Part shown: positions 2,635 through 28,655 of the stretch, piece by piece
Layout: every line of letters begins with the position of its first letter
Position numbering within the stretch: the stretch's first letter is position 1
Assembly: GCA_947259105.1 (NCBI GenBank)
Contig: CAMYKU010000005.1
Span: forward strand, 9,530-73,529
Source: an uncultured Alphaproteobacteria bacterium
GTDB taxonomy: Bacteria > Pseudomonadota > Alphaproteobacteria > UBA8366 > JADFVY01
Direction: 5' to 3'
DNA: 64,000 nucleotides
Notes under the pieces: generated by a model
What the model saw: only the letters and a program-made list of their open reading frames with translations
Databases searched by the model: none
What the model was told of the DNA's origin: nothing
Program-made: the position numbers and the translations under genes

Positions 2635-4500
2635 TCAGTTTGACACCAGCGGGCCAACCGCACCCTTGTCCCGGTCGAGAACTGGCACGAGCCACGGACC
2701 CGATTCCTTGCTCCGGCAGGCGACCGCCGGATAGGCGCGGGGTTTGGCGGACTGCGAGCGCACCAGGACATAAGTCCGACAAGGCACGCCGTCCGGGCGA
2801 TCGATTTCGCCGGTCGCCTCGATGACGAACGCTTCACCGACGGCGGTGCTTCCCCAACGGGTCTCGGTTCCGATCTCCCCGTTCTCCAGCATGTCCTGTA
2901 CGCTCCGCTCCAGCCCGGCACGCACGGCGGGCGGCCAGTCGTGTCCCCCGGGCCTGATCGCCACCAGTTCGACCCGATGTACGCCTTCGACACCGTCCAG
3001 AAGATCGTCCCGGCGGACATAGTGGCGCACCGCCGGCGCGTAGTACCAGACACGCGTGTGCCAGGTGCCCGGACGGGGATTGGATCGCTTGCAGACAACT
3101 GGGATCGTCTCGAAAGTGCCGGCGGCAACCGACACTCGCTCTCCGCCTTTCCGCCTGCATCCCCATGTTTCGGTCGTCTTGATCGCAGTGCCGGGGGCAT
3201 CCGCGGGCGTCCAGAAAACACTGACGCCAAACGAGACGGCTTTGCGCCTTGTGTTCGGCCAGGCGTCGTCGGCATCCAGATCCACCGTCGCCTCGCCACT
3301 GCCGGCCGCGGTTTGCCACGCGATACGGGGCAGAATGAAGTTGCGGTGCGCGGTCTGGCTGGCACCGGCCCTTGTGCGCCACCAGACCCTGTCGCTGCCG
3401 ACCCGGAGAACCGTCTCCACCCGGCCGTCCGAATAGGCGAACGCATCGCCGACCTCGTAGACCGGCTCGAATTCGTCCCGCTGATATCCGATCACGACGT
3501 CGCCTGGTCCGGCATACGGGGCGTCGCGCGCCGGTATGGCGGCGGACGCATTGAGATGTTCGAGCAGGATCAGCGAAACCTTCCCGTCGACCGGCAGTCC
3601 GGCCCGTGTCTGATAGTCGCGAATTGCAGACGTCGTCTTGCGGCCCGGATAGCCGTCGGCCGGGCCGGGATCGTAACCACGCGCCGCCAGCATCCGCTGC
3701 GCCGATCTGATGGTCTCGCGCGTCAGGTGATCGACCAGTTCCTGTGAGGGCTCGCCGTCAATTTCGAGCCCCGCCCGTTCCTGATACGCGCGGATCGCTG
3801 TCGTCGTCTTGCCGCCGGCCAGGCCGTCGATGACGCCGGCATCGTAGCCGAGCACGGCAAGCATCCGCTGCACCGATCTTACGGTCTCGCGCAACATATG
3901 GTCGACCAGCGCATCGGTGGCCATGCCGTCGACCTCGAGGCCGGCCATGGCCTGATAGTCGCGAATCGCGGCCCTGGTCTTGCGGCCGGAAAACCCGTCG
4001 GCCGGACCGGGATCGTAACCGCTTTCGGCCAGCATGCGCTGTACCGTCGCCACGGTTTCGCGCTTGAGATGGTTGGCAAGTCCCTGGGTCGGCTTGCCGT
4101 CGACTCTCAGGCCGGCCTGGGCCTGATACAGCCTGATCGCCCTGACCGTCTTGCGCCCGGCGAAACCGTCGGCCGGGCCAGGATCATAGCCGCGCGCAAG
4201 CAGCCCGAGTTGTAGCGAGCGTACGGTCTCGCGGGTCATGTGGTCGATCAGAGCCTGCGACGCCCTGCCGTCGACCGGCAGGTCGGCCCGCTTCTGATAG
4301 CTGCGGATCGCGGCAGTCGTCTCGCTGCCGGCGTATCCGTTGATCTGCCCGACATCGTAGCCGCGCGCGGCCAACGCGTTCTGCACCGTTTCCACGATCT
4401 CGCGGGATGCCTCGCCCGGGTCCTGCGCCCGGGCATGCTTTGCGACGACCGAGCCAGCCACAAGAATACCCGCCACGAGCGCCATGAACACAGTGCGCAT
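2635..4500 (-). CDS. Exported protein with five tandem peptidoglycan-binding (PG_binding_1) repeats and a C-terminal region ending in a 17-kDa-surface-antigen-like domain
   Basis: Signal peptide MRTVFMALVAGILVAGSVVAKHARA. Five ~57-aa repeats of consensus VQxxLxxxGYDPGPADGxxGxKTxxAIRxYQxxAGLxVDG. C-terminus W-x-S...CRTY...ACR...GPW. The ORF could extend to 4611. Confidence 0.85.
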   Translation of the reverse strand: MRTVFMALVAGILVAGSVVAKHARAQDPGEASREIVETVQNALAARGYDVGQINGYAGSETTAAIRSYQKRADLPVDGRASQALIDHMTRETVRSLQLGLLARGYDPGPADGFAGRKTVRAIRLYQAQAGLRVDGKPTQGLANHLKRETVATVQRMLAESGYDPGPADGFSGRKTRAAIRDYQAMAGLEVDGMATDALVDHMLRETVRSVQRMLAVLGYDAGVIDGLAGGKTTTAIRAYQERAGLEIDGEPSQELVDHLTRETIRSAQRMLAARGYDPGPADGYPGRKTTSAIRDYQTRAGLPVDGKVSLILLEHLNASAAIPARDAPYAGPGDVVIGYQRDEFEPVYEVGDAFAYSDGRVETVLRVGSDRVWWRTRAGASQTAHRNFILPRIAWQTAAGSGEATVDLDADDAWPNTRRKAVSFGVSVFWTPADAPGTAIKTTETWGCRRKGGERVSVAAGTFETIPVVCKRSNPRPGTWHTRVWYYAPAVRHYVRRDDLLDGVEGVHRVELVAIRPGGHDWPPAVRAGLERSVQDMLENGEIGTETRWGSTAVGEAFVIEATGEIDRPDGVPCRTYVLVRSQSAKPRAYPAVACRSKESGPWLVPVLDRDKGAVGPLVSN

Positions 4501-4812
4501 CAACAGCCCGCACGCTGGTTTTTCGCGCAGCTTGCGGCTCCGTGACGTGCCCGGTTTCACACCGGCCGCCCGGTGAATGGCCCGCGTGTCGTGTGAATCA
4601 ACCCCGGTCATTCGATGCGGTCCACAATGCCTGCTTCGCGCAGGTGTACATCCCGAATGGAACTGTCGGTGCCCCGGACGCGGTATGCGATTCTTCCCAC
4701 ACGCATGATCATTTTACGAAGGCCATTGTTAACAAACGAAAAAGGCCCCGACGCCCAATCGATACGTGCTCGTTCCGTTGTTCTGTTTCGCTGCGCCATG
4801 GACATCATCCTC

Positions 4813-6936
4813 CTATTCGGCCGCCGCGGCTGTCTTCCGGGCAATGACGCGCTCCTTGGGAAAGATGACCTTGACCGTCGTTCCCACGCCTTCCTTGCTC
4901 TTGAGCTCGAGTTCGCCATCGTGAAGCTCCACGAGGCTCTTGGTCAGTGGCAGCCCGAGGCCTGTTCCCTCGTATTCCCGCGAAATGGAGGAGTCTGCCT
5001 GGATGAACGGCTGGAAAATCCGCGCCTGGTCGCGCTTGGCGATCCCGACGCCGTTGTCCGATACCGTCGCGACGAGCCGGCCCTTGTAGTCGATCCGCGC
5101 GCCGACCACGATCCGCCCGCCACGCGCGGTAAACTTGACCGCGTTCGACAGCAGGTTGAGGACAATCTGCTTCAGCGATCTGGCGTCGCCATAAACGACC
5201 AGGAACGGGTGGGCGTACGCCGTCTCTATTGTCACGCCAACGCTTTCCGCCTTGTCGCGCAGCAGGCTGAGCCCTTCCTCGATGATCTCGGTGATATCGA
5301 TCTCCTGCTCGTCCAACTCGAATTTCTTCGCCTCAACCTTGGAGAGATCGAGAATGTTGTTGATGAGGCTCAGCAGGTGCAATCCGCTGTTGCGGATGTC
5401 CTGGCCATACTCCCGATACTTTTCGCTGACCGGCCCGAACAACTCGTAGACGGTCATCTCGGAAAATCCGATGACCGCATTTAGCGGGGTCCGCAGTTCG
5501 TGACTGACCATAGCCAGGAATTCCGACTTCGCCCGGTTCGCCACGTCGGCCTGTTCCTTGGCCTCGCGCAGCTCTTTTTCGACGCGCTTGCGCTGGGCGA
5601 TCTCCTTCCCCAGCGCCACGTTCGACGCGTTGGCCCGCGTGAGTTCCCTGGTTCGCTGTATCACGGCCCGCTCGATCAGCAACTGCCGATCGCGTGTCGA
5701 TTTCAGGTGCATGACCAGCGCCAGGGTGAGCATGAGGCTGACCACGCCGAACCCCCACGGCGCGATACCGGATCCGGATACCATTTGGCCGGGAACCGGC
5801 TTGACGACGATCGACCAGTCGCGATCGGCCAGCCTGAAACCGGCGGATGTGACGAACCCCGCGCGGACTCCCGCTTCATCTGCCGGCGCCGCGTGTTCGC
5901 TGCGCAGCTGCGACGGCCGATAGTACAAGAGGCGTTGGCCCTTGCCCGCATGTTCGTCGATCAGAAAGGTGTCCACCCAATCCGGCGTCGTGAACATCGC
6001 GAGGGTCGAGTCGATGATGGCGCCCACGTCGAGCACGCCAACCACGAAACCGACAAGTTTCTCGCGCCGGTCCGGGATGGTGAGCGGCGTATTGGCGGTG
6101 GTGTATACCGGCGAGATGACGAGCAGCGTCGCTTTGGTGTTGTTCCCCGCATCCGCCGGCGCCGCGAACGCGGTCGACGTCGTGCCGCTGTCACGCGCGC
6201 GGTCCAGGGCATTCAGATATGTCGGCCGAAACGCCAGGTCAAAGCCCAGAAAATCCTCATTCCCGTCGAAGGGTTCGACATAATAAACCGGCGAATATTC
6301 AGGGCGAGAGGCGGCCTCGATCACCGTTCCCTGGGCGCCGCGCTCGGTCACGTGGAACTTGAACAACCCGTCGTCGTTGGCGGCTTGTTCAAGGGCGGCC
6401 CGATCGGATTCCGCCACACGCGGCGCCCATGCCAGCGCCTTTATGCCGGGATATCCGGGCAGCCGGTCCTCGGTGAACTTGAAGAACTCCCATCGGTTGA
6501 CCTGGCCACCGAATTCAGAGATCAAAGCGCCGACTTCGGAGACAACCTCGACGTACCGGTCGGCGGCCTTGCGCGAAACGAGCAGATGATGCGCCGCTTT
6601 CCTGTCGAACTCATGCCGGTCGGCAGCCTCGTCGTAATACCGGATGGTCAGAAACCCGGCCACCGCAATCACGACACCCACCACCAGCACGATCGCTTCC
6701 GGCGCCCGCTCGCGCAGGAACGCAAGTACCCGCGCACGCAGAGGCTCCAGCGACGGCACGAATTCGCGCCACCGCGCCGGCCCGGCAACGGTTCTGCCGA
6801 ACACCCCGAGCACGCCCGCGAGCCGCATGGCCTTGCGGGCGGCAGATTGGAACAGTCCACCCGCGTAGGAACGAACGGCAACGGCGTAAACGGTCATGCC
6901 TGCAAGAACCCGCCTGACGCGCGGATCACCACCCAT
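4813..6936 (-). CDS. CHASE-domain membrane sensor histidine kinase, paralogue of 61..2181
   Basis: Same architecture as the first kinase: YYVEPFDGNEDFLGFDL, identical H-box FLAMVSHELRTPLNAVIGFSE, NLLSNAVKFT and GTGLGL. Confidence 0.9.
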   Translation of the reverse strand: MGGDPRVRRVLAGMTVYAVAVRSYAGGLFQSAARKAMRLAGVLGVFGRTVAGPARWREFVPSLEPLRARVLAFLRERAPEAIVLVVGVVIAVAGFLTIRYYDEAADRHEFDRKAAHHLLVSRKAADRYVEVVSEVGALISEFGGQVNRWEFFKFTEDRLPGYPGIKALAWAPRVAESDRAALEQAANDDGLFKFHVTERGAQGTVIEAASRPEYSPVYYVEPFDGNEDFLGFDLAFRPTYLNALDRARDSGTTSTAFAAPADAGNNTKATLLVISPVYTTANTPLTIPDRREKLVGFVVGVLDVGAIIDSTLAMFTTPDWVDTFLIDEHAGKGQRLLYYRPSQLRSEHAAPADEAGVRAGFVTSAGFRLADRDWSIVVKPVPGQMVSGSGIAPWGFGVVSLMLTLALVMHLKSTRDRQLLIERAVIQRTRELTRANASNVALGKEIAQRKRVEKELREAKEQADVANRAKSEFLAMVSHELRTPLNAVIGFSEMTVYELFGPVSEKYREYGQDIRNSGLHLLSLINNILDLSKVEAKKFELDEQEIDITEIIEEGLSLLRDKAESVGVTIETAYAHPFLVVYGDARSLKQIVLNLLSNAVKFTARGGRIVVGARIDYKGRLVATVSDNGVGIAKRDQARIFQPFIQADSSISREYEGTGLGLPLTKSLVELHDGELELKSKEGVGTTVKVIFPKERVIARKTAAAAE

Positions 6937-9040: not shown

Positions 9041-11482
9041 ATGACCGACCACAAACCGCTGCCGGTTGAAGAGCTGTTCCGGGCGTGCGACCCGTCGCGC
9101 CTCGGTTTCAAGACGACATCCGAGCTGGAGCCGCTGGAAGAGTTGATTGGGCAGGACCGCGCGGTCGAGGCGGTGGCGTTCGGCATCGGCATCCGGCGCG
9201 ACGGCTTCAACCTGTTCGCCGCCGGCCCGGCCGGTACCGGCAAGCACACGCTGATCGGCGAATTCCTGCAGCGCCAGGCGCGCACCGGACCGGTCCCGGA
9301 CGACTGGTGTTATGTTTACAACTTCCAGGAACCGCGGCGGCCCTACGCGTTGCGATTGCCTGCCGGGCGCGCCCATCCGCTGGCCCGGGACATGGAACGC
9401 CTGACCCTGGATCTGCGCGCCGCCCTGCAAACGACCTTCGAAAGCGAGGATTACCGCAATCGCCGCGAAGCCCTGGCCCAGGAATTCAAAGAGCGCCAGG
9501 AACAGGCGTTCGAAGAGATTCAGCAGCGCGCCAAGGAGCACAGCGTCGCGCTGGTGCGCACGCCGCTTGGACTCGCGCTGGCGCCGCTGCGGGAGGGCCA
9601 GGTGCTGAGCCCCGAAGAGTTCGAGGCACTGCCGGAGGCAGAGCGCGACAAGACCAAGGCGGACCTCAAGGTGCTCGAAGAGGAGCTTCAGGCGACGCTG
9701 CGCCAGGCGCCGCGCTGGGAGCGCGAGCACCGCGACCGCGTCCGCGAGATCAACCGCGAGGTCAGCAGCCTCGCGGTGGGCCATCTGATCGAGGAGATCC
9801 GCAAGAAGCACGCGGATCTCCCGGACGTCATCGAATGGCTCCGGGTGGTTGAGGAAGACGTGGTCGACAAGGCCGAGACGCTGCTTGCCGGGCCACAACA
9901 GACATCCGGCGAGGCGGGCCATCAGCCGCAGACCGCGCATGCGCCGGCCCAGGACGGGGCGATGCGTCACTACACCGTCAACGTGCTGGTCGGCAGCGAC
10001 GGCAGCGACGGCGCGCCGGTCGTTTACGAAGATCACCCGACCTATGGCAACCTGCTGGGCCGGATCGAGCACCGTTCGGAGTTCGGCACTCTCGTCACCG
10101 ACTTCACGCTGATCAAGGCGGGAGCGCTGCACCGCGCCAATGGCGGCTACATGGTGGTGGATGCATACAAGCTGCTGACCCAGCCGTTCAGCTGGGACGG
10201 GCTGAAGCGGGTCCTGCGGGCAGGAGAGATCAGCATCGAGCCGCTGGGCCAGACGTTGAGCCTCGTCGACACCGTGTCGCTGGACCCGCAGCCGATTCCG
10301 CTGGACATCAAGATCGTGCTGGTCGGCGAGCGGATGCTGTACTACCTGCTCTGCGCCTACGATCCGGATTTCAACGAGTTATTCAAGGTCCAGGCGGATT
10401 TCGAGGAGGAAATGCCGCGCGACGGGGCCAATGTGGACCTTTACGCCCGGCTGATCGGCACCATCGTGCGCAACGAGGGTATGCACCCGTTCGACGCCGG
10501 CGCAGTGGCCCGCGTGATCGAGCGCGCGGCGCGGCTTGCGCACGACCGCGGAAAACTGACCACCCACATGCGCAGCATCGCCGACCTGTTGCACGAGGCC
10601 GACTACTGGGCGGAAACCGCCGGGCACGAAACGGTGACGGCCGCGGACGTGACGCGGGCCATCGACGCCCATATCCGCCGCTCCGACCGGCTGCGCGAAA
10701 AGGTGCAGGACTCGATTGCCGAGGGCATCGTGCTGATCGACAGCGCGGGCGCCAAGCCCGGCCAGCTGAACGGCCTGTCGGTGATGCAGCTCGGCGGATA
10801 TTCGTTCGGCCGGCCGAGTCGAATCACGGCGCGCGTCAGCATGGGCCGCGGCCGGGTCATCGACATCGAACGCGAGGTCAAGCTGGGCGGTCCGCTGCAT
10901 TCCAAGGGTGTGCTGATCCTGTCGGGATTCCTTGCCGACCGGTTCGGGCGGGATCGCCCGCTGGCCCTGGCCGCAAGCCTGGTCTTCGAGCAGTCCTACG
11001 GCGGCGTGGACGGTGACAGCGCCTCCTCGACCGAGCTGTACGCCCTGATGTCGGCGCTTTCCGGGGTGCCGGTCAAGCAGGGTTTCGCGGTCACCGGTTC
11101 GGTCAACCAGCGTGGCGAGGTCCAGGCGATCGGCGGCGCCAACGAGAAGATCGAGGGCTTCTTCGACGTCTGCGAGGCGCGCGGGCTGACCGGCGAACAG
11201 GGCGTCCTGATCCCGGCGTCGAACGTGCGTCACCTGATGCTGCGCGAAGACGTGGTCGAGGCCTGCCGCAAGGGCGATTTCGCGATCTACGGCGTGGAAT
11301 CCGTTGACCAGGGCCTGGAGATTCTGACCGGCGTGCCGGCCGGCGAGCCGGACCAGGACGGCGTCTATCCGGACGGCACGATCAACCGCATGGTCGCCGA
11401 CCGGCTGGAGGATTTCGCCGAGAAGGTCCGAAAACTGGGCGGTGAAGGCAGGAACGGGAACAACAACGAAAAAAACGGCTAA
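9041..11482 (+). CDS. Lon-type protease, LonC/LonB-like (AAA-like domain with coiled-coil insertion plus Lon_C)
   Basis: IGQDRA, GPAGTGK, GALHRANGG, FEQSYGGVDGDSAS (catalytic Ser) and GGANEKIEGF (catalytic Lys). Confidence 0.92.
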   Translation: MTDHKPLPVEELFRACDPSRLGFKTTSELEPLEELIGQDRAVEAVAFGIGIRRDGFNLFAAGPAGTGKHTLIGEFLQRQARTGPVPDDWCYVYNFQEPRRPYALRLPAGRAHPLARDMERLTLDLRAALQTTFESEDYRNRREALAQEFKERQEQAFEEIQQRAKEHSVALVRTPLGLALAPLREGQVLSPEEFEALPEAERDKTKADLKVLEEELQATLRQAPRWEREHRDRVREINREVSSLAVGHLIEEIRKKHADLPDVIEWLRVVEEDVVDKAETLLAGPQQTSGEAGHQPQTAHAPAQDGAMRHYTVNVLVGSDGSDGAPVVYEDHPTYGNLLGRIEHRSEFGTLVTDFTLIKAGALHRANGGYMVVDAYKLLTQPFSWDGLKRVLRAGEISIEPLGQTLSLVDTVSLDPQPIPLDIKIVLVGERMLYYLLCAYDPDFNELFKVQADFEEEMPRDGANVDLYARLIGTIVRNEGMHPFDAGAVARVIERAARLAHDRGKLTTHMRSIADLLHEADYWAETAGHETVTAADVTRAIDAHIRRSDRLREKVQDSIAEGIVLIDSAGAKPGQLNGLSVMQLGGYSFGRPSRITARVSMGRGRVIDIEREVKLGGPLHSKGVLILSGFLADRFGRDRPLALAASLVFEQSYGGVDGDSASSTELYALMSALSGVPVKQGFAVTGSVNQRGEVQAIGGANEKIEGFFDVCEARGLTGEQGVLIPASNVRHLMLREDVVEACRKGDFAIYGVESVDQGLEILTGVPAGEPDQDGVYPDGTINRMVADRLEDFAEKVRKLGGEGRNGNNNEKNG

Positions 11483-23591: not shown

Positions 23592-24338
23592 TCAAATGCA
23601 GCGGCCGCCGTCGACCTCAAGGCATACGCCGGTCAGGAACTGCGCCTCGTCGGAGCACAGGAACAGCGCCGAATCCGCGACGTCCCGCGGGGTGCTGAAA
23701 CGGCCAAGCGGGATCGTGGAGACGAACTCCCGGCGGCGCTCCGGCGTATCCGCACCCATGAAAAGGTGCAGCATGCCCGTCTCGCCCGCCACCGGATTGA
23801 GCGCGCAGACGCGAATTGAATCGGGCGCAAGCTCCACCGCCATCGATTTGGTGATCGTGATCACGGCGCCCTTCGAACCGTTATACCAGACCAGACCGGG
23901 ACGCGGGCGCACGCCGGCCGTCGATGCGATGTTCAGGATCACCCCGCCGCCGCGTTCACGAAACACAGGAACGGCGCTCTTCGCCCCAAAATAAAGCGAT
24001 TTCACATTCACCGCGTGGATACGGTCGATTTCCTCTTCCGTCACATCCAGCATCGGGCCGTTGCGATGTGTGAAGCCGGCATTGTTGACGAGAATGTCGA
24101 GCCCGCCAAAGGAGTCCAGCGCCGCCGCAACCATGCCGGCCATTTCGTCGCCACGGCTTACGTCCGTGTGAACGAACCGGCCCGCTGCGCCCAACGAGTC
24201 GGCGACGGCCTGGCCGTTTGAATCGTCGATATCGGCGACGATCACCTTCGCACCTTCATCGACGAACCTGCGGGCGATGCCCTCGCCGAATCCGGACCCG
24301 GCGCCCGTTACGGCTGCAACCTTTCCGTTAAGACGCAC
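23592..24338 (-). CDS. Short-chain dehydrogenase/reductase (FabG-like)
   Basis: TGAGSGFG, LVNNAG, RPRPGLVWYNGSK and EVDGGRCI. Confidence 0.92.
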   Translation of the reverse strand: MRLNGKVAAVTGAGSGFGEGIARRFVDEGAKVIVADIDDSNGQAVADSLGAAGRFVHTDVSRGDEMAGMVAAALDSFGGLDILVNNAGFTHRNGPMLDVTEEEIDRIHAVNVKSLYFGAKSAVPVFRERGGGVILNIASTAGVRPRPGLVWYNGSKGAVITITKSMAVELAPDSIRVCALNPVAGETGMLHLFMGADTPERRREFVSTIPLGRFSTPRDVADSALFLCSDEAQFLTGVCLEVDGGRCI

Positions 24339-24594: not shown

Positions 24595-26022
24595 ATGAGT
24601 AGCGGTACCATATTACTGGTCGAAGACACGCCCTCGCTGGCGCGCCTGTACCAACAGTACCTCGACGGCGAAGACGCGGACGTGATTGCGGTTGGCACCG
24701 GGAAGGAGGCGCTGAAAGCGTTGAGCGGGGAAGCGCCGTCGGTGGTGCTGCTCGACCTCAGGCTGCCGGACATGGACGGGCTGGACATCCTGAAGGAAAT
24801 GCAGGCGCGCGAGTTGCCGAGCGAAGTGGTGGTGATTACGGCGCACGGCTCGATCAACGTCGCGGTCGAGGCCATGCGTGCGGGCGCATACGATTTCCTG
24901 GTCAAGCCGTTCAACGCGGAACGGCTGCTCGTTACCGTGCGCAACGCCCTGAAACACGGGTCGCTGTCGGCGATCGTCAAGAAAATCACCGATGTCTCGC
25001 GCGACAGCTATTTCGGGTTCATCGGCTCGTCGCTGGCGATGCAGGCGGTGTACCGCACCGTCGATGCCGCGGCGACATCGAAAGCGACGGTGTTCATCAC
25101 CGGCGAATCGGGCACCGGCAAGGAAGTGGCGGCCGAGGCAATTCACAGGCAGAGCCCCCGCAAGAACGGGCCCTTCGTTGCGATCAATTGCGGCGCAATC
25201 CCCAAGGATTTGATGGAATCAGAGATCTTCGGCCATGTGAAAGGCGCCTTTACCGGCGCGCATGTGGAACGCGACGGCGCGGCGTCCCGGGCCTCCGGCG
25301 GCACTCTGTTTCTGGATGAAATCTGCGAGATGGACCTGGCCCTGCAGACCAAATTGCTGCGATTCATCCAGACCGGCACCTTCCAGAAGGTCGGCGGCTC
25401 GAAGACCGAGAAGGTCGATGTGCGTTTCGTCTGCGCCACCAACCGGGACCCGCTGGCCGAGGTCGAGGCCGGGAATTTCCGTGAGGATCTGTATTACCGG
25501 CTGCATGTCATCCCGCTGCACCTTCCGGCACTGCACGACCGCAACGGCGACGTTATCGAGATCGCGCGGCATTTCCTCGCTGCGTACGCAGCGGAGGAAG
25601 GCAAGCTGTTCGCCAGCTTCAGCCCGGAGGCGGAGCAGATCATCGGGCAATTCAGTTGGCCGGGCAACATCCGGCAGGTCCAGAACGTTATCCGGAACGT
25701 CGTGGTGCTGAACGACGGCGACGTCGTCACGGCCGATATGCTGCCGCCGCCGTTGAACCAGCCGGCATCGGCCGCCAAGCCCGGGTCGACTGCCGAGCGG
25801 CAACCCGAACAGCCCGAGGACGCGGAAAGGGGCGCCGGCACAGCCGTGGCCGGCGGCGACGGCGACATCGTACCGTTGTGGAAGGTGGAGAAGGATGTGA
25901 TCGAGCGCGCCATCGAGAGCTGTGACGGAAATATCCCGAAAGCGGCGGCCAAGCTGGGGATTTCGCCTTCGACCATTTACCGCAAAAAGTTGAGCTGGGA
26001 CGCCGAGGACGTCGGGTCTTAA
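24595..26022 (+). CDS. luxO: Sigma54-dependent response regulator, LuxO-like (REC-AAA+-HTH)
   Basis: VEDTPSLA, LLDLRLPDM, GFIGSS, GESGTGKE, FGHVKGAFTGA, LFLDEICEMDL, LLRFIQTGTFQKVG, MLPPPLNQP and GNIPKAA..ISPSTIYRK. These closely follow the Vibrio LuxO sequence as I recall it. Confidence 0.8.
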   Translation: MSSGTILLVEDTPSLARLYQQYLDGEDADVIAVGTGKEALKALSGEAPSVVLLDLRLPDMDGLDILKEMQARELPSEVVVITAHGSINVAVEAMRAGAYDFLVKPFNAERLLVTVRNALKHGSLSAIVKKITDVSRDSYFGFIGSSLAMQAVYRTVDAAATSKATVFITGESGTGKEVAAEAIHRQSPRKNGPFVAINCGAIPKDLMESEIFGHVKGAFTGAHVERDGAASRASGGTLFLDEICEMDLALQTKLLRFIQTGTFQKVGGSKTEKVDVRFVCATNRDPLAEVEAGNFREDLYYRLHVIPLHLPALHDRNGDVIEIARHFLAAYAAEEGKLFASFSPEAEQIIGQFSWPGNIRQVQNVIRNVVVLNDGDVVTADMLPPPLNQPASAAKPGSTAERQPEQPEDAERGAGTAVAGGDGDIVPLWKVEKDVIERAIESCDGNIPKAAAKLGISPSTIYRKKLSWDAEDVGS

Positions 26023-26033
26023 CGGATGACGCT

Positions 26034-27872
26034 CTACTCCGGCGGCGGGTAACCGGCGCGAGCGAATTCGCGCCAACTCTCTGCCACCAGGCCGGGCATC
26101 CCGTTCAGGAGGTCGGACGCCAGGCTCGCATCGTTCCCGGTCGCTGCCGCTTCAAGCCGTTCCACCAGCATTTGCAGACGCAGCGCACCGAATGTCCCGG
26201 AACTGCTCTTCATCGCATGCGCTTCGGCAGCGATCGAATCCAGGTCCCCGGCTTGCATGGCCGCCTGCATGCGCAGCAGGCGCTCGTCGGTCTCGGTCAT
26301 GAACGATGCGATCAACTCGCGTACCAGTACCGGACCCGCGTCGTCTCGCAACTGTTCCAGGGTCGCGTTGTCGGCCAGGGTGGCATCGGCCGCACCGGCC
26401 TCGGTGCCTTCCGGCACGCTGTCGCCGTCATCGGCGCCGTCGGCACCGGGCGGACCGACCAGGCGGTGCAACACCGAAGACAGAACGCGCCGATCGACGG
26501 GCTTGGAGACGTGATCATCCATTCCTGACTCGAGGCAAAGCTGCCGATCTTCGGGATTGACGTGCGCCGTCATGGCCACGATGGGGACCGAACGGCCGGG
26601 TTCGGCAAGGCTCCGTATCTTCGCGGTTGCTTCGAAGCCATCCATCCCGGGCATCCTGATATCCATCAGTACCAGCCCGTACGTTCCTTCCCGCACAGCG
26701 TCGACGGCCTGTTGCCCATTCTCCACCGCATCGCATTCATACCCCATCTTCTTGAGGATCGTGACCCCGAGCAGCCGATTGGTCTGACTGTCATCCACCA
26801 GCAATATGCGTTGACTTCGCGCATCGGACGGATCGATCACGCGCGCCGACGTGGCGGGCGCCGCGACCGCCGTCACTTCCGCTGGCACCGCGTCGAAGAC
26901 GCCGACGCCGCAGTAACCCAGAAACACGCCGTCGTCGCCGATCCGGGGCACGCCACTCAGGCGCACGCCACGAGTCCGTTCGCCGTCCTGCAGAATCAGG
27001 CCGACCTGGTTCAGCCTGCGATGCTCTTGCATGTCCTCGATGCATTTCGACAGGGCGGAGTCATCGGCGGCCGCGGCCGGCAACCCCAATTCCGCAAGAC
27101 CACGGCCAATCATCCAGCGAAGCTCATCGCGGTTCAACTCGCTGCGGACAGGAATGGCGCGCGAAATTCGGTGCAGCACATCTGTTTCCCAAATCCACGC
27201 GCCGGCGGCGGAGATGGTCAGGCGCAGTTTTTCCCGTTCGGCACGCGCTTCCGACGTGCGTGTGCGCTCCTCAGTTATATCGCTGACGCTAACGAGGACC
27301 CCGCCGCCATCCAGCCTCGACTCGTCGAACCGCACCCACGTTCCGCCGTCAAGTTGTCGCTCGCCGGCAAGACTGGCTCCGGGGCCGCCGGGCGCCCGCC
27401 TGCCCGAGATCCGAAGCACGGTGTCGCCGTACAAGCTGCCAACCAATGCGAGTCCCTCCATGTCCGCAAATAGCCTGCGCCACGGCTTGTTGCAGAACAC
27501 GAGCCGCCCGTCGGTGTCATACACGGCAAATCCCGTCGGAACCGTATCCAAGATGCCGCCCCAGCTCGCGGCCGGCGGGCCCAAGCCGTCGCTATCGGAG
27601 TGATCGCGCCTGGAAGGGCGTACTGCCACAAATGCAAGTCCGGCGCCGGCCAGTACCGTCGCACCGAGCCAGGGTGCCAGCACAAGCACGGACTCGCCGT
27701 CGGCCGCCATACCGGCGAGCCGGGCGACAAGCCCCGCCAGCGATGCAAGAAACAAAACCGCCAAACCGGTGAATGCTAGAACTCGCGATCTCAAACCCGA
27801 AACTTCCTCCGGCTGCTCAAAGGGCCCATGGCAGAGCCCGCCGCGTGAATGCTCTCCCCCAATTCGGGCCAC
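26034..27872 (-). CDS. Membrane-anchored PAS-PAS-REC-HPt phosphorelay protein with no histidine kinase core
   Basis: Two TM segments and PAS-like regions (GFAVYDTDGRLVFCN; WIWETD). REC: ILLVDD, LVLMDIRMPGMDG, AMTA, SKP. HPt: AHAMKSSSGTFGA. No H-, N- or G-box. Start uncertain. Confidence 0.85.
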   Translation of the reverse strand: MARIGGEHSRGGLCHGPFEQPEEVSGLRSRVLAFTGLAVLFLASLAGLVARLAGMAADGESVLVLAPWLGATVLAGAGLAFVAVRPSRRDHSDSDGLGPPAASWGGILDTVPTGFAVYDTDGRLVFCNKPWRRLFADMEGLALVGSLYGDTVLRISGRRAPGGPGASLAGERQLDGGTWVRFDESRLDGGGVLVSVSDITEERTRTSEARAEREKLRLTISAAGAWIWETDVLHRISRAIPVRSELNRDELRWMIGRGLAELGLPAAAADDSALSKCIEDMQEHRRLNQVGLILQDGERTRGVRLSGVPRIGDDGVFLGYCGVGVFDAVPAEVTAVAAPATSARVIDPSDARSQRILLVDDSQTNRLLGVTILKKMGYECDAVENGQQAVDAVREGTYGLVLMDIRMPGMDGFEATAKIRSLAEPGRSVPIVAMTAHVNPEDRQLCLESGMDDHVSKPVDRRVLSSVLHRLVGPPGADGADDGDSVPEGTEAGAADATLADNATLEQLRDDAGPVLVRELIASFMTETDERLLRMQAAMQAGDLDSIAAEAHAMKSSSGTFGALRLQMLVERLEAAATGNDASLASDLLNGMPGLVAESWREFARAGYPPPE

Positions 27873-27929: not shown

Positions 27930-28655
27930 ATGATCCTGATTTTCACGGATTTCGGGCTTTCGGGACCCTACGCGGGCCAGATGCGGACGGCTGTGCTGGC
28001 GCAAGATCCCGATGCCGCGATCGTCGACCTGATGCATGACGCGCCGCGCGGCAACCCGCGGGCCGCCGCCTACCTGCTGGCCGCGCTGGCCGAGCGAATG
28101 CCGGCGGAGTGCGTATGCGTTGCCGTCGTCGACCCAGGCGTCGGCGGCGACCGGCCACCGCTTGTCGTTCAGGCCGGCACCCGCTATTTCGTCGGGCCCG
28201 GCAACGGGTTGCTGGACGTCTTGGGCCGTCGCGCGGAAGACGCGCGGGTCTGGCGTATCGACTGGCGGCCCGAGTCCATGTCGGATACGTTTCATGGCCG
28301 CGACCTGTTCGCCCCGGTCGCCGCAATGCTGGCGACGGGCGTGTTTCCGCAAGCTACCGAAATCGGGTGGGACAGCCCGGGCGCAGGCTGGCCCGACGAC
28401 CTGCCGGAGGCAATCTATACCGATGGATTCGGGAACGTCATGAGCGGCCTGCGGGCGTCTCGCATGGCTAACGGCGTACGGATCGCCGCCGCGGGGCATC
28501 TCTTGCGCCGCGCCCGCACGTTTTCCGATGTCGCGGCGGGCGAGGCGTTCTGGTACGAAAATTCCATCGGGCTTGTGGAAATCGCCGTCAATCGGGGCAG
28601 CGCGGCCGATATTCTGGATTTGAAGCCCGGCGATCCCGTATATCCCGCGCCCTGA
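27930..28655 (+). CDS. DUF62 SAM hydrolase (SAM hydroxide adenosyltransferase; chlorinase/fluorinase superfamily)
   Basis: FTDFG, VVDPGVGGDR, GPGNGLL, TFHGRDLFAPVAA, DGFGNV and EIAVNRGSAA. Confidence 0.9.
   Translation: MILIFTDFGLSGPYAGQMRTAVLAQDPDAAIVDLMHDAPRGNPRAAAYLLAALAERMPAECVCVAVVDPGVGGDRPPLVVQAGTRYFVGPGNGLLDVLGRRAEDARVWRIDWRPESMSDTFHGRDLFAPVAAMLATGVFPQATEIGWDSPGAGWPDDLPEAIYTDGFGNVMSGLRASRMANGVRIAAAGHLLRRARTFSDVAAGEAFWYENSIGLVEIAVNRGSAADILDLKPGDPVYPAP

Follow-up and report, generated by a model that had tools for sequence, protein, structure and literature searches.

A kinase-less PAS-REC-HPt protein convergent to a LuxO-family gene in an uncultured alphaproteobacterial family

We start from the phosphorelays that most resemble the locus considered here. 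In Vibrio, LuxU, a single-domain HPt protein (about 110 residues by its NCBIfam model), is encoded in an operon with luxO. RcsD retains a kinase core in degenerate form and lacks a receiver able to accept phosphate. As PMC7418988 describes it, this membrane protein derives from a kinase, cannot autophosphorylate and passes phosphate via its HPt domain to a regulator. In the ShkA-ShpA-TacA relay of Caulobacter crescentus, which ends on a sigma54 activator, the kinase ShkA is soluble and the HPt domain is a separate protein, ShpA; in the structure of full-length ShkA (PDB accession code: 6QRJ), Rec1 is reported to be a pseudo-receiver (PMC6969517), and one that binds cyclic di-GMP (PMC6969517; PMC7010744). 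Our subject is the open reading frame (ORF) at 26034-27872, minus strand, of a 64,000-nucleotide stretch (the window) of contig CAMYKU010000005.1 from an uncultured alphaproteobacterium. It encodes two transmembrane (TM) helices, two PAS domains, a receiver (REC) and an HPt domain, has no kinase core, and converges on a luxO-like gene. We call its product the PAS-REC-HPt protein and number its residues from the GTG start.

Like LuxU, the HPt domain is encoded beside luxO, and Vibrio-type LuxO sites exist in the source genome. Unlike LuxU, it is the tail of a 612-residue membrane protein whose gene is convergent to luxO, and it scores 25 bits on the NCBIfam LuxU model against a cutoff of 140; the HPt fold with its conserved histidine is that of a LuxU-type protein, the NCBIfam score and the single-domain, co-transcribed state are not. 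The likeness to RcsD lies in a membrane-bound derivative of a kinase that would hand on phosphate through its HPt domain, but here the core is deleted outright rather than degenerate, and an intact receiver is kept. The likeness to ShkA lies in a relay that would end on a sigma54 activator and in a full-length kinase of a sister lineage, which matches ShkA across DHp-CA-Rec1-Rec2 and whose REC1 is degenerate, as is the pseudo-receiver of ShkA (PMC6969517). The ancestor here, however, would have had TM helices, three PAS domains and a fused HPt, the present protein lacks DHp, CA and Rec1, and the activator is of the LuxO family. The first-pass annotation of the window had called the gene its best candidate for an undescribed system; this is overstated, as modules already known beside luxO form a series to which the gene belongs. 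At abstract level, our literature search found no study on LuxO in Alphaproteobacteria such as Azospirillum or Rhodospirillales taxa, and none on a kinase-less PAS-REC-HPt architecture.

Domain anatomy and conservation of the protein

The ORF codes for 612 residues counted from the GTG, or for 586 if translation begins at the in-frame TTG at codon 27, which is the form of the database entry, and 11 bp separate its stop from that of the luxO-like gene. Pfam recognizes PAS_7 (starting at 108), Response_reg (356-466, 3e-28) and Hpt (519-590, 1e-12), and gives no match to HisKA or HATPase_c down to E=1. The AlphaFold2 (AF2) model, for which 29 family sequences served as alignment input, has a mean predicted local distance difference test score (pLDDT) of 70 and a predicted template modeling score of 0.43. 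It begins with two long helices (25-58 and 62-84), followed by PAS1 (102-198), a helix (200-220) that leads to PAS2 (225-327), then REC (355-472) and an HPt of four helices (502-605). The stretches 331-349 and 477-498 are disordered, and there is no DHp-like helical hairpin between PAS2 and REC.

On the minus strand of the window, the helix pair (about residues 31-57 and 62-84; 27621-27782) constitutes the sole hydrophobic segments of the protein in a Kyte-Doolittle scan. Because a 4-residue loop joins the two helices, both PAS domains should be cytoplasmic, with no periplasmic sensor domain. PAS1 (27279-27569), of the PAS_7 type, is placed by Pfam, AF2 and Foldseek, and PAS2 (26892-27200), the best-conserved part of the sensor, by alignment and AF2; in Foldseek the N-terminal half of the protein goes to tandem-PAS proteins (DosP, MmoS, PpsR). 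The disordered Ala/Pro linker of about 25 residues (327-353, 26811-26891; pLDDT <50), delimited by BLASTP against a 1189-residue kinase discussed below, occupies the site of the missing PAS3-HisKA-HATPase-REC1 of the ancestral kinase. The receiver (26457-26810; Pfam and alignment) has its phospho-acceptor D404 at 26661-26663 and goes in Foldseek to hybrid-kinase receivers (GacS D1, PA1611), while the HPt bundle (26058-26369; Pfam, alignment and AF2) has H552 at 26217-26219. Among NCBIfam models, ArcB, BarA and TorS match best, each through its REC-HPt tail. What remains of an unorthodox hybrid kinase is the C-terminal REC with its Asp, followed by the HPt with its His; HisKA and HATPase_c are missing, and the protein can neither use ATP nor autophosphorylate. 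No second copy of the TM-PAS-PAS region is found in the source genome at E <1e-10. The first-pass annotation had read the domain order, the linker in place of the kinase core, the intact transfer residues, the unbroken frame and the 11-bp spacing from the DNA alone, and all of these hold; the absence of HisKA and HATPase, for which it suggested a profile scan, is borne out by Pfam and by the AF2 model.

We compare the source genome (G000) with 40 relatives, including 13 genomes of the same family from four genera. A full-length counterpart with no internal stops occurs in 13/13 family genomes, and outside the family only REC-HPt tails match the protein. The same division appears in a homologue search (8000 scored), in which we consider the best 120 of the 474 matches with E <=0.001: the 31 top homologues (39-100% identical) carry the PAS, REC and HPt families only, and from rank 32 down the matches are only to the REC-HPt tail of ordinary hybrid kinases. 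A wider search with the sensor region gives, outside the family, only matches at E >=2e-15 to proteins of mixed length, and none of the 5 loci fetched is beside luxO. Of the 13 family genomes, 12 have luxO, and in 11 it is the convergent neighbor of the PAS-REC-HPt gene on one contig; the other two cases fall at contig ends, with the two genes at the ends of two contigs in one genome (G012) and, in another that is 81% complete (G009), the PAS-REC-HPt gene opening a contig and luxO not found. The flanks, a gene similar to SAM hydroxide adenosyltransferase (SAM_HAT; 27930-28655, plus strand) and a short-chain dehydrogenase gene (23592-24338, minus strand), are syntenic as well. Homologues also lack the core and stay linked to luxO, a point that the first-pass annotation had proposed to test, and the protein is neither a private deletion nor a mis-assembly.

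In the family alignment (29 members down to 40% identity), D361, D404, T435 and K457 of the receiver and H552 and K555 of the HPt are invariant, as is the PAS2 block W226-D231, and the PAS2-REC linker varies in both length and sequence. The ratios of nonsynonymous to synonymous substitution (dN/dS, Nei-Gojobori, against four congeners), which are rough as dS is saturated (>1), are 0.05-0.10 for REC, 0.08-0.11 for HPt, 0.11-0.22 for PAS2, 0.33-0.57 for PAS1 and 0.5-1.5 for the PAS2-REC linker. By these values the retained cytoplasmic PAS pair is under purifying selection, and its conservation argues that it does something.

Origin of the kinase-less form among LuxO loci

A genome from another family of the same order (G017) has the slot dehydrogenase/luxO/X/SAM_HAT filled by a kinase of 1189 residues with the order PAS, PAS, PAS_7, HisKA (527-591), HATPase (638-752), REC, REC (913-1026) and HPt (1099-1172). 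BLASTP aligns residues 63-332 of the PAS-REC-HPt protein with 93-382 of this kinase (25% identity, E 4e-18) and residues 355-599 with 912-1179 (40% identity, E 4e-52), and the intervening 383-911 (about 530 residues) have no counterpart. The core of the G017 kinase matches 6qrj continuously from DHp through CA and Rec1 to Rec2 (E 2e-86). Neither the acidic pair nor the Thr is present in REC1 of this kinase, and the REC kept in the PAS-REC-HPt protein corresponds to Rec2; the ShkA-like order of DHp, CA, pseudo-receiver and receiver is found in the kinase and is absent from the PAS-REC-HPt protein. In a more distant genome (G218), SAM_HAT is followed by a 1179-residue kinase of like domain order, its core 44% identical to that of G017, and then by the convergent luxO. 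Hybrid kinases with REC-HPt ends are likewise convergent to luxO in G486, G273, G106 and G277.

Could the lost portion survive elsewhere as a gene of its own? No separate gene for PAS3-DHp-CA-REC1 is found in G000, G001, G004, G005 and G007, where the best matches are 36-40% identical. This is the level of the G017 kinase's own paralogues (39-42%), true orthologues being at 44-53%, so the matches are paralogous and we reject the split-gene reading. With two syntenic full kinases and no split-off gene, the simplest history is an in-frame loss at domain boundaries, in which PAS3, DHp, CA and REC1 would have disappeared in the family ancestor from a TM-PAS-PAS-PAS-DHp-CA-REC1-REC2-HPt kinase convergent to luxO. 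The first-pass annotation had foreseen that orthologues with a kinase core might expose the gene as an artefact; close orthologues with a core do not occur, those that do retain it are the syntenic kinases of other families (G017, G218), and they point to an ancient internal deletion that became fixed, and to no artefact.

The history of the module can be followed in a quick IQ-TREE analysis of 48 REC-HPt modules (supported by the Shimodaira-Hasegawa-like approximate likelihood ratio test, SH-aLRT, only; HPt-only loci and loci with no match are left out). In it the G017 kinase is the sister (82) of the family clade (SH-aLRT 99), and 8 short REC-HPt proteins of Azospirillum form a clade (100) inside an Azospirillaceae clade (99), the rest of which is full-length except for one contig-cut row. 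Since the short Azospirillum clade is nested and separate from the family clade, the kinase core was lost at least two times beside luxO. The short proteins resemble ours in having the same module in the same convergent slot, derived from a full-length kinase, but they have no TM or PAS part and go back to an independent loss; among the losses beside luxO, that of the source family is the only one in which the sensor was kept.

To place these forms we survey LuxO loci more broadly. We find LuxO homologues at E <=1e-150 in 61 of the 401 genomes sampled from the class. Across 80 LuxO loci, tblastn with this HPt against neighbors within 4.5 kb detects an HPt-bearing neighbor in 40; the remaining 40 include gammaproteobacterial loci, whose LuxU this query would miss. 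The 40 neighbors are 18 full hybrid kinases, 9 REC-HPt frames (281-500 codons, three of them cut by contig ends), 10 HPt-only frames (122-151 codons) and 3 of the PAS-REC-HPt type. Nine neighbors were checked with Pfam: the proteins of A. brasilense (1156 residues) and A. halopraeferens (996 residues) each have PAS, HisKA, HATPase, REC and HPt, four Azospirillum proteins of 288-357 residues have REC and HPt only, and two proteins of 115-120 residues have HPt only. Short Azospirillum REC-HPt genes convergent to luxO lie at L082:5003-5869(-) and L083:6975-7919(+) and in L094 and L106. An HPt gene beside luxO recurs across orders, in four architectures, and is a general feature of LuxO loci.

In G277:C44:8000-24000 (L084), which has the convergent hybrid kinase, luxO is also immediately preceded on its own strand by the gene for a 374-residue classical kinase (9750-10874, minus strand), and in G035 (L016) a 403-residue HisKA-HATPase gene likewise precedes the luxO homologue. 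We also note that five contigs with the locus or with the small RNAs described below (L018, L090, L191, L195, L197) belong to metagenome-assembled genome (MAG) records titled Flavobacteriales or Akkermansiaceae, titles that look like mislabelling or mis-binning.

The LuxO-like neighbor and its candidate small RNAs

The convergent gene (24595-26022, plus strand) encodes a LuxO-family sigma54 activator of 475 residues, identified by Pfam, NCBIfam and PDB matches, with D54 at 24754-24756. It has the domains of LuxO, namely REC, a sigma54 AAA+ domain with GAFTGA, and HTH_8. NCBIfam gives it 680 bits for LuxO_Vibrio (below the cutoff of 800) against 420 for NtrC, i.e., 260 higher, and its closest solved structure is LuxO (5ep0; 497 bits, against 317 for NtrC1). 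All 15 LuxO sequences compared share D54, D11 and K104. Sequence identity is about 64% to Azospirillum, 60-61% to Aeromonas and 59% to Enterovibrio, and other named relatives come from Thalassospiraceae, Kiloniella, Nisaea and Magnetovibrio. The identity of the activator as TacA is rejected, as neither Caulobacter TacA nor any Caulobacter record is among its 80 closest relatives. The source genome contains rpoN.

As an HPt beside luxO is common to all four architectures, it is likely to be the phosphodonor or acceptor of D54 of LuxO. The first-pass annotation had proposed a model of this contact, and we build it from HPt residues 498-612 and LuxO REC residues 1-125, along with three controls. 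The complex scores 0.72 and the best of the three controls 0.01; the same score mark is reached by 58 of 80 solved complexes and by 2 of 110 mismatched pairs, figures that are approximate since the alignments were our own. At least 96% of contacts are shared between runs, the partner pLDDT is at least 91, and the interface comprises D54, D11, K104 and H552, with H552 facing D54. HPt-REC complexes such as Ypd1-Sln1 are already solved, and the pass of the model may mirror likeness to them only. We take the model to favor binding of the HPt to the LuxO REC without demonstrating it; what bears on a possible transfer of phosphate from the HPt to LuxO is this model and the kept adjacency.

What LuxO may control is found outside the window. 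A genome-wide scan gives only two exact Vibrio-type LuxO sites (about 1.3 expected by our own base-composition estimate), each within about 160 bp of one of the 12 strict sigma54 promoter matches genome-wide. The site motif agrees with a LuxO table from chromatin immunoprecipitation sequencing in PMC10328515, and the LuxO box of G004 matches the qrr1 site of V. cholerae letter for letter. At G000:C1 ~126670-127050, minus strand, two tandem sigma54 promoters are each followed by about 12 nt, then an invariant 20-nt core with the anti-Shine-Dalgarno-like CCUUCCUU, then a GC-rich terminator. These define candidate small RNAs of about 50-70 nt at L171:1844-1918 and L171:1672-1746, minus strand (L171 being G000:C1:125099-128449), and two LuxO-box-like palindromes 23 bp apart lie near G000:C1:126670-126705. 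The pair is present in 11/14 family genomes (22 copies), its terminator stems change by compensatory substitutions, and in all pair-bearing genomes two such palindromes, 23 bp apart, are located about 135 nt past the second core, followed by the 3' end of a convergent gene. The tandem RNAs look like LuxO-controlled small RNAs that are Qrr-like in design; unlike in Qrr, the enhancer would lie downstream of them.

Rfam gives nothing in the window at the gathering threshold and nothing at E up to 1 on the two LuxO-box loci. The small-RNA seed with a sigma54 promoter is not found in five genomes of other families, and the exact 20-mer is paired only in MAGs of the source family, with single matches in two Bacteroidota records. 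The second exact LuxO box (G000:C54:22131-22195, L170) stands between an ORF, which it precedes, and a minus-strand sigma54 promoter match, from which it is about 30 nt downstream; a chemotaxis cluster and the gene for a 919-residue HK-REC-REC protein are close by.

Direction of transfer and meaning of the series

The core is absent, yet every transfer residue is invariant. We infer a forward relay through the protein's own receiver, from a classical kinase to REC, HPt and LuxO, and give it a probability of roughly 0.55. In this relay at least one orphan classical kinase would phosphorylate D404 in trans, phosphate would pass from D404 to H552 of the protein's own HPt and on to D54 of LuxO, and LuxO would then drive sigma54 promoters, probably those of the two tandem small RNAs. 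The PAS pair may tune the relay step or dock the donor. The first-pass annotation had likewise proposed a signal-gated relay or a phosphate sink; its reading finds support in outline, and the two are weighed below.

The donor candidates are of two kinds. The paralogues nearest to the lost core are orphan PAS_7-HisKA-HATPase kinases on C46, C10 and C11, which have no receiver gene on record in their vicinity. The first-pass annotation had mentioned orphan CHASE kinases as one possibility, and the window holds two of three tandem CHASE-HisKA-HATPase kinases (61-2181 and 4813-6936, minus strand), the third being just upstream of it. Full-length CHASE kinases of this type occur in 11/13 family relatives, and elsewhere in 91 genomes of the order CHASE kinases occur only as two hybrids of 961 and 969 residues. 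As this family restriction amounts to one clade and one event, we keep them as a lead only; their distance from the PAS-REC-HPt gene is 18-30 kb in G000, G001 and G003 but exceeds 600 kb in G004, a complete genome. As a tentative extension, well under even odds, the PAS pair may gate the transfer from REC through HPt to LuxO or recruit the family's CHASE kinases, making the protein a sensory hub that feeds a circuit of LuxO, sigma54 and tandem small RNAs, parallel to Vibrio LuxO-Qrr with unrelated RNAs.

Several points weigh against the forward relay. The donor kinases are candidates only, and sensing by the PAS pair, or its gating of the transfer, is conjectural. The controls of the complex model are unrelated proteins rather than other receivers, so that the model does not speak to specificity. 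The HPt-only lineages show that input to LuxO needs no receiver. The polarity of the deletion depends on two full-length outgroups, a key node at 82% and parsimony, and saturation of dS makes the dN/dS values only rough. Finally, the PAS-REC-HPt gene and luxO are convergent and form no operon, and their coupling rests on kept adjacency.

The direction of flow may also be the opposite. If LuxO is charged by another route, its phosphate could drain to H552, then to D404 and be lost by hydrolysis, the PAS domains setting the rate. The intact residues and the linkage to luxO also fit such a sink, four-step relays commonly run in reverse and lose phosphate by hydrolysis at their middle receiver according to PMC3820541, and a drain would explain as well why the kinase was lost and REC-HPt kept at least twice. 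However, no alternative HPt or LuxO-dedicated kinase is found next to luxO in the family, and in the HPt-only loci the HPt must be the input route. Present evidence fits either direction, and we consider the sink unlikely.

Less likely still is a LuxU-like arrangement, in which hybrid kinases without an HPt feed H552 directly and the protein's own REC competes or buffers. Five HisKA-HATPase-REC proteins without HPt are encoded in the genome (860 residues on C31, 919 and 819 on C54, 795 on C36 and 1217 on C34), the design would be that of Vibrio as given in PMC10328515, and the HPt has its weak, full-length match to the NCBIfam LuxU model (E 2e-5). But no part of the protein is more constrained than the REC, with its invariant Asp, Thr and Lys, which seems excessive for a passive buffer, and several of those hybrid kinases cluster with HPt proteins of their own, as on C31. 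That the gene is a remnant of a decaying kinase, or serves another regulator and stands beside luxO by chance, is very improbable: although it is not co-transcribed with luxO and its PAS1 and linkers evolve fast, the frame is intact in all family genomes, the transfer residues are invariant across 29 sequences, and the HPt-luxO adjacency recurs across orders in four architectures.

Some observations stand apart from this question. The C31 signalling cluster (G000:C31:46600-55800) encodes, besides its 860-residue HK-REC-REC protein, a single REC, two HPt-REC-REC proteins of about 580 residues and a 565-residue protein with a sub-threshold HATPase match and REC-HPt, a form that recurs at 542-572 residues in relatives. 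Within the window, a gene with five peptidoglycan-binding repeats (2635-4611) interrupts the tandem CHASE kinases, and an 813-residue Lon-like protease of the LonB/LonC type (AAA_32, LonC helical domain, Lon_C) is encoded at 9041-11482, plus strand.

We return to the forward relay and to what the locus means. Relays are usually told as a sensing kinase followed by passive carriers; here a carrier has kept the sensor after the kinase was lost, and this sensor-bearing, kinase-less form is maintained in four genera or more. Rhodospirillales-like Alphaproteobacteria commonly have LuxO-family regulators with an HPt partner, and in the source family LuxO is probably tied to small RNAs. Their loci form a series of full hybrid kinase, sensor-REC-HPt, REC-HPt and HPt alone, which offers a tractable case for studying the rewiring of relays and the function of a sensor domain carried by an intermediate that has no catalytic activity.

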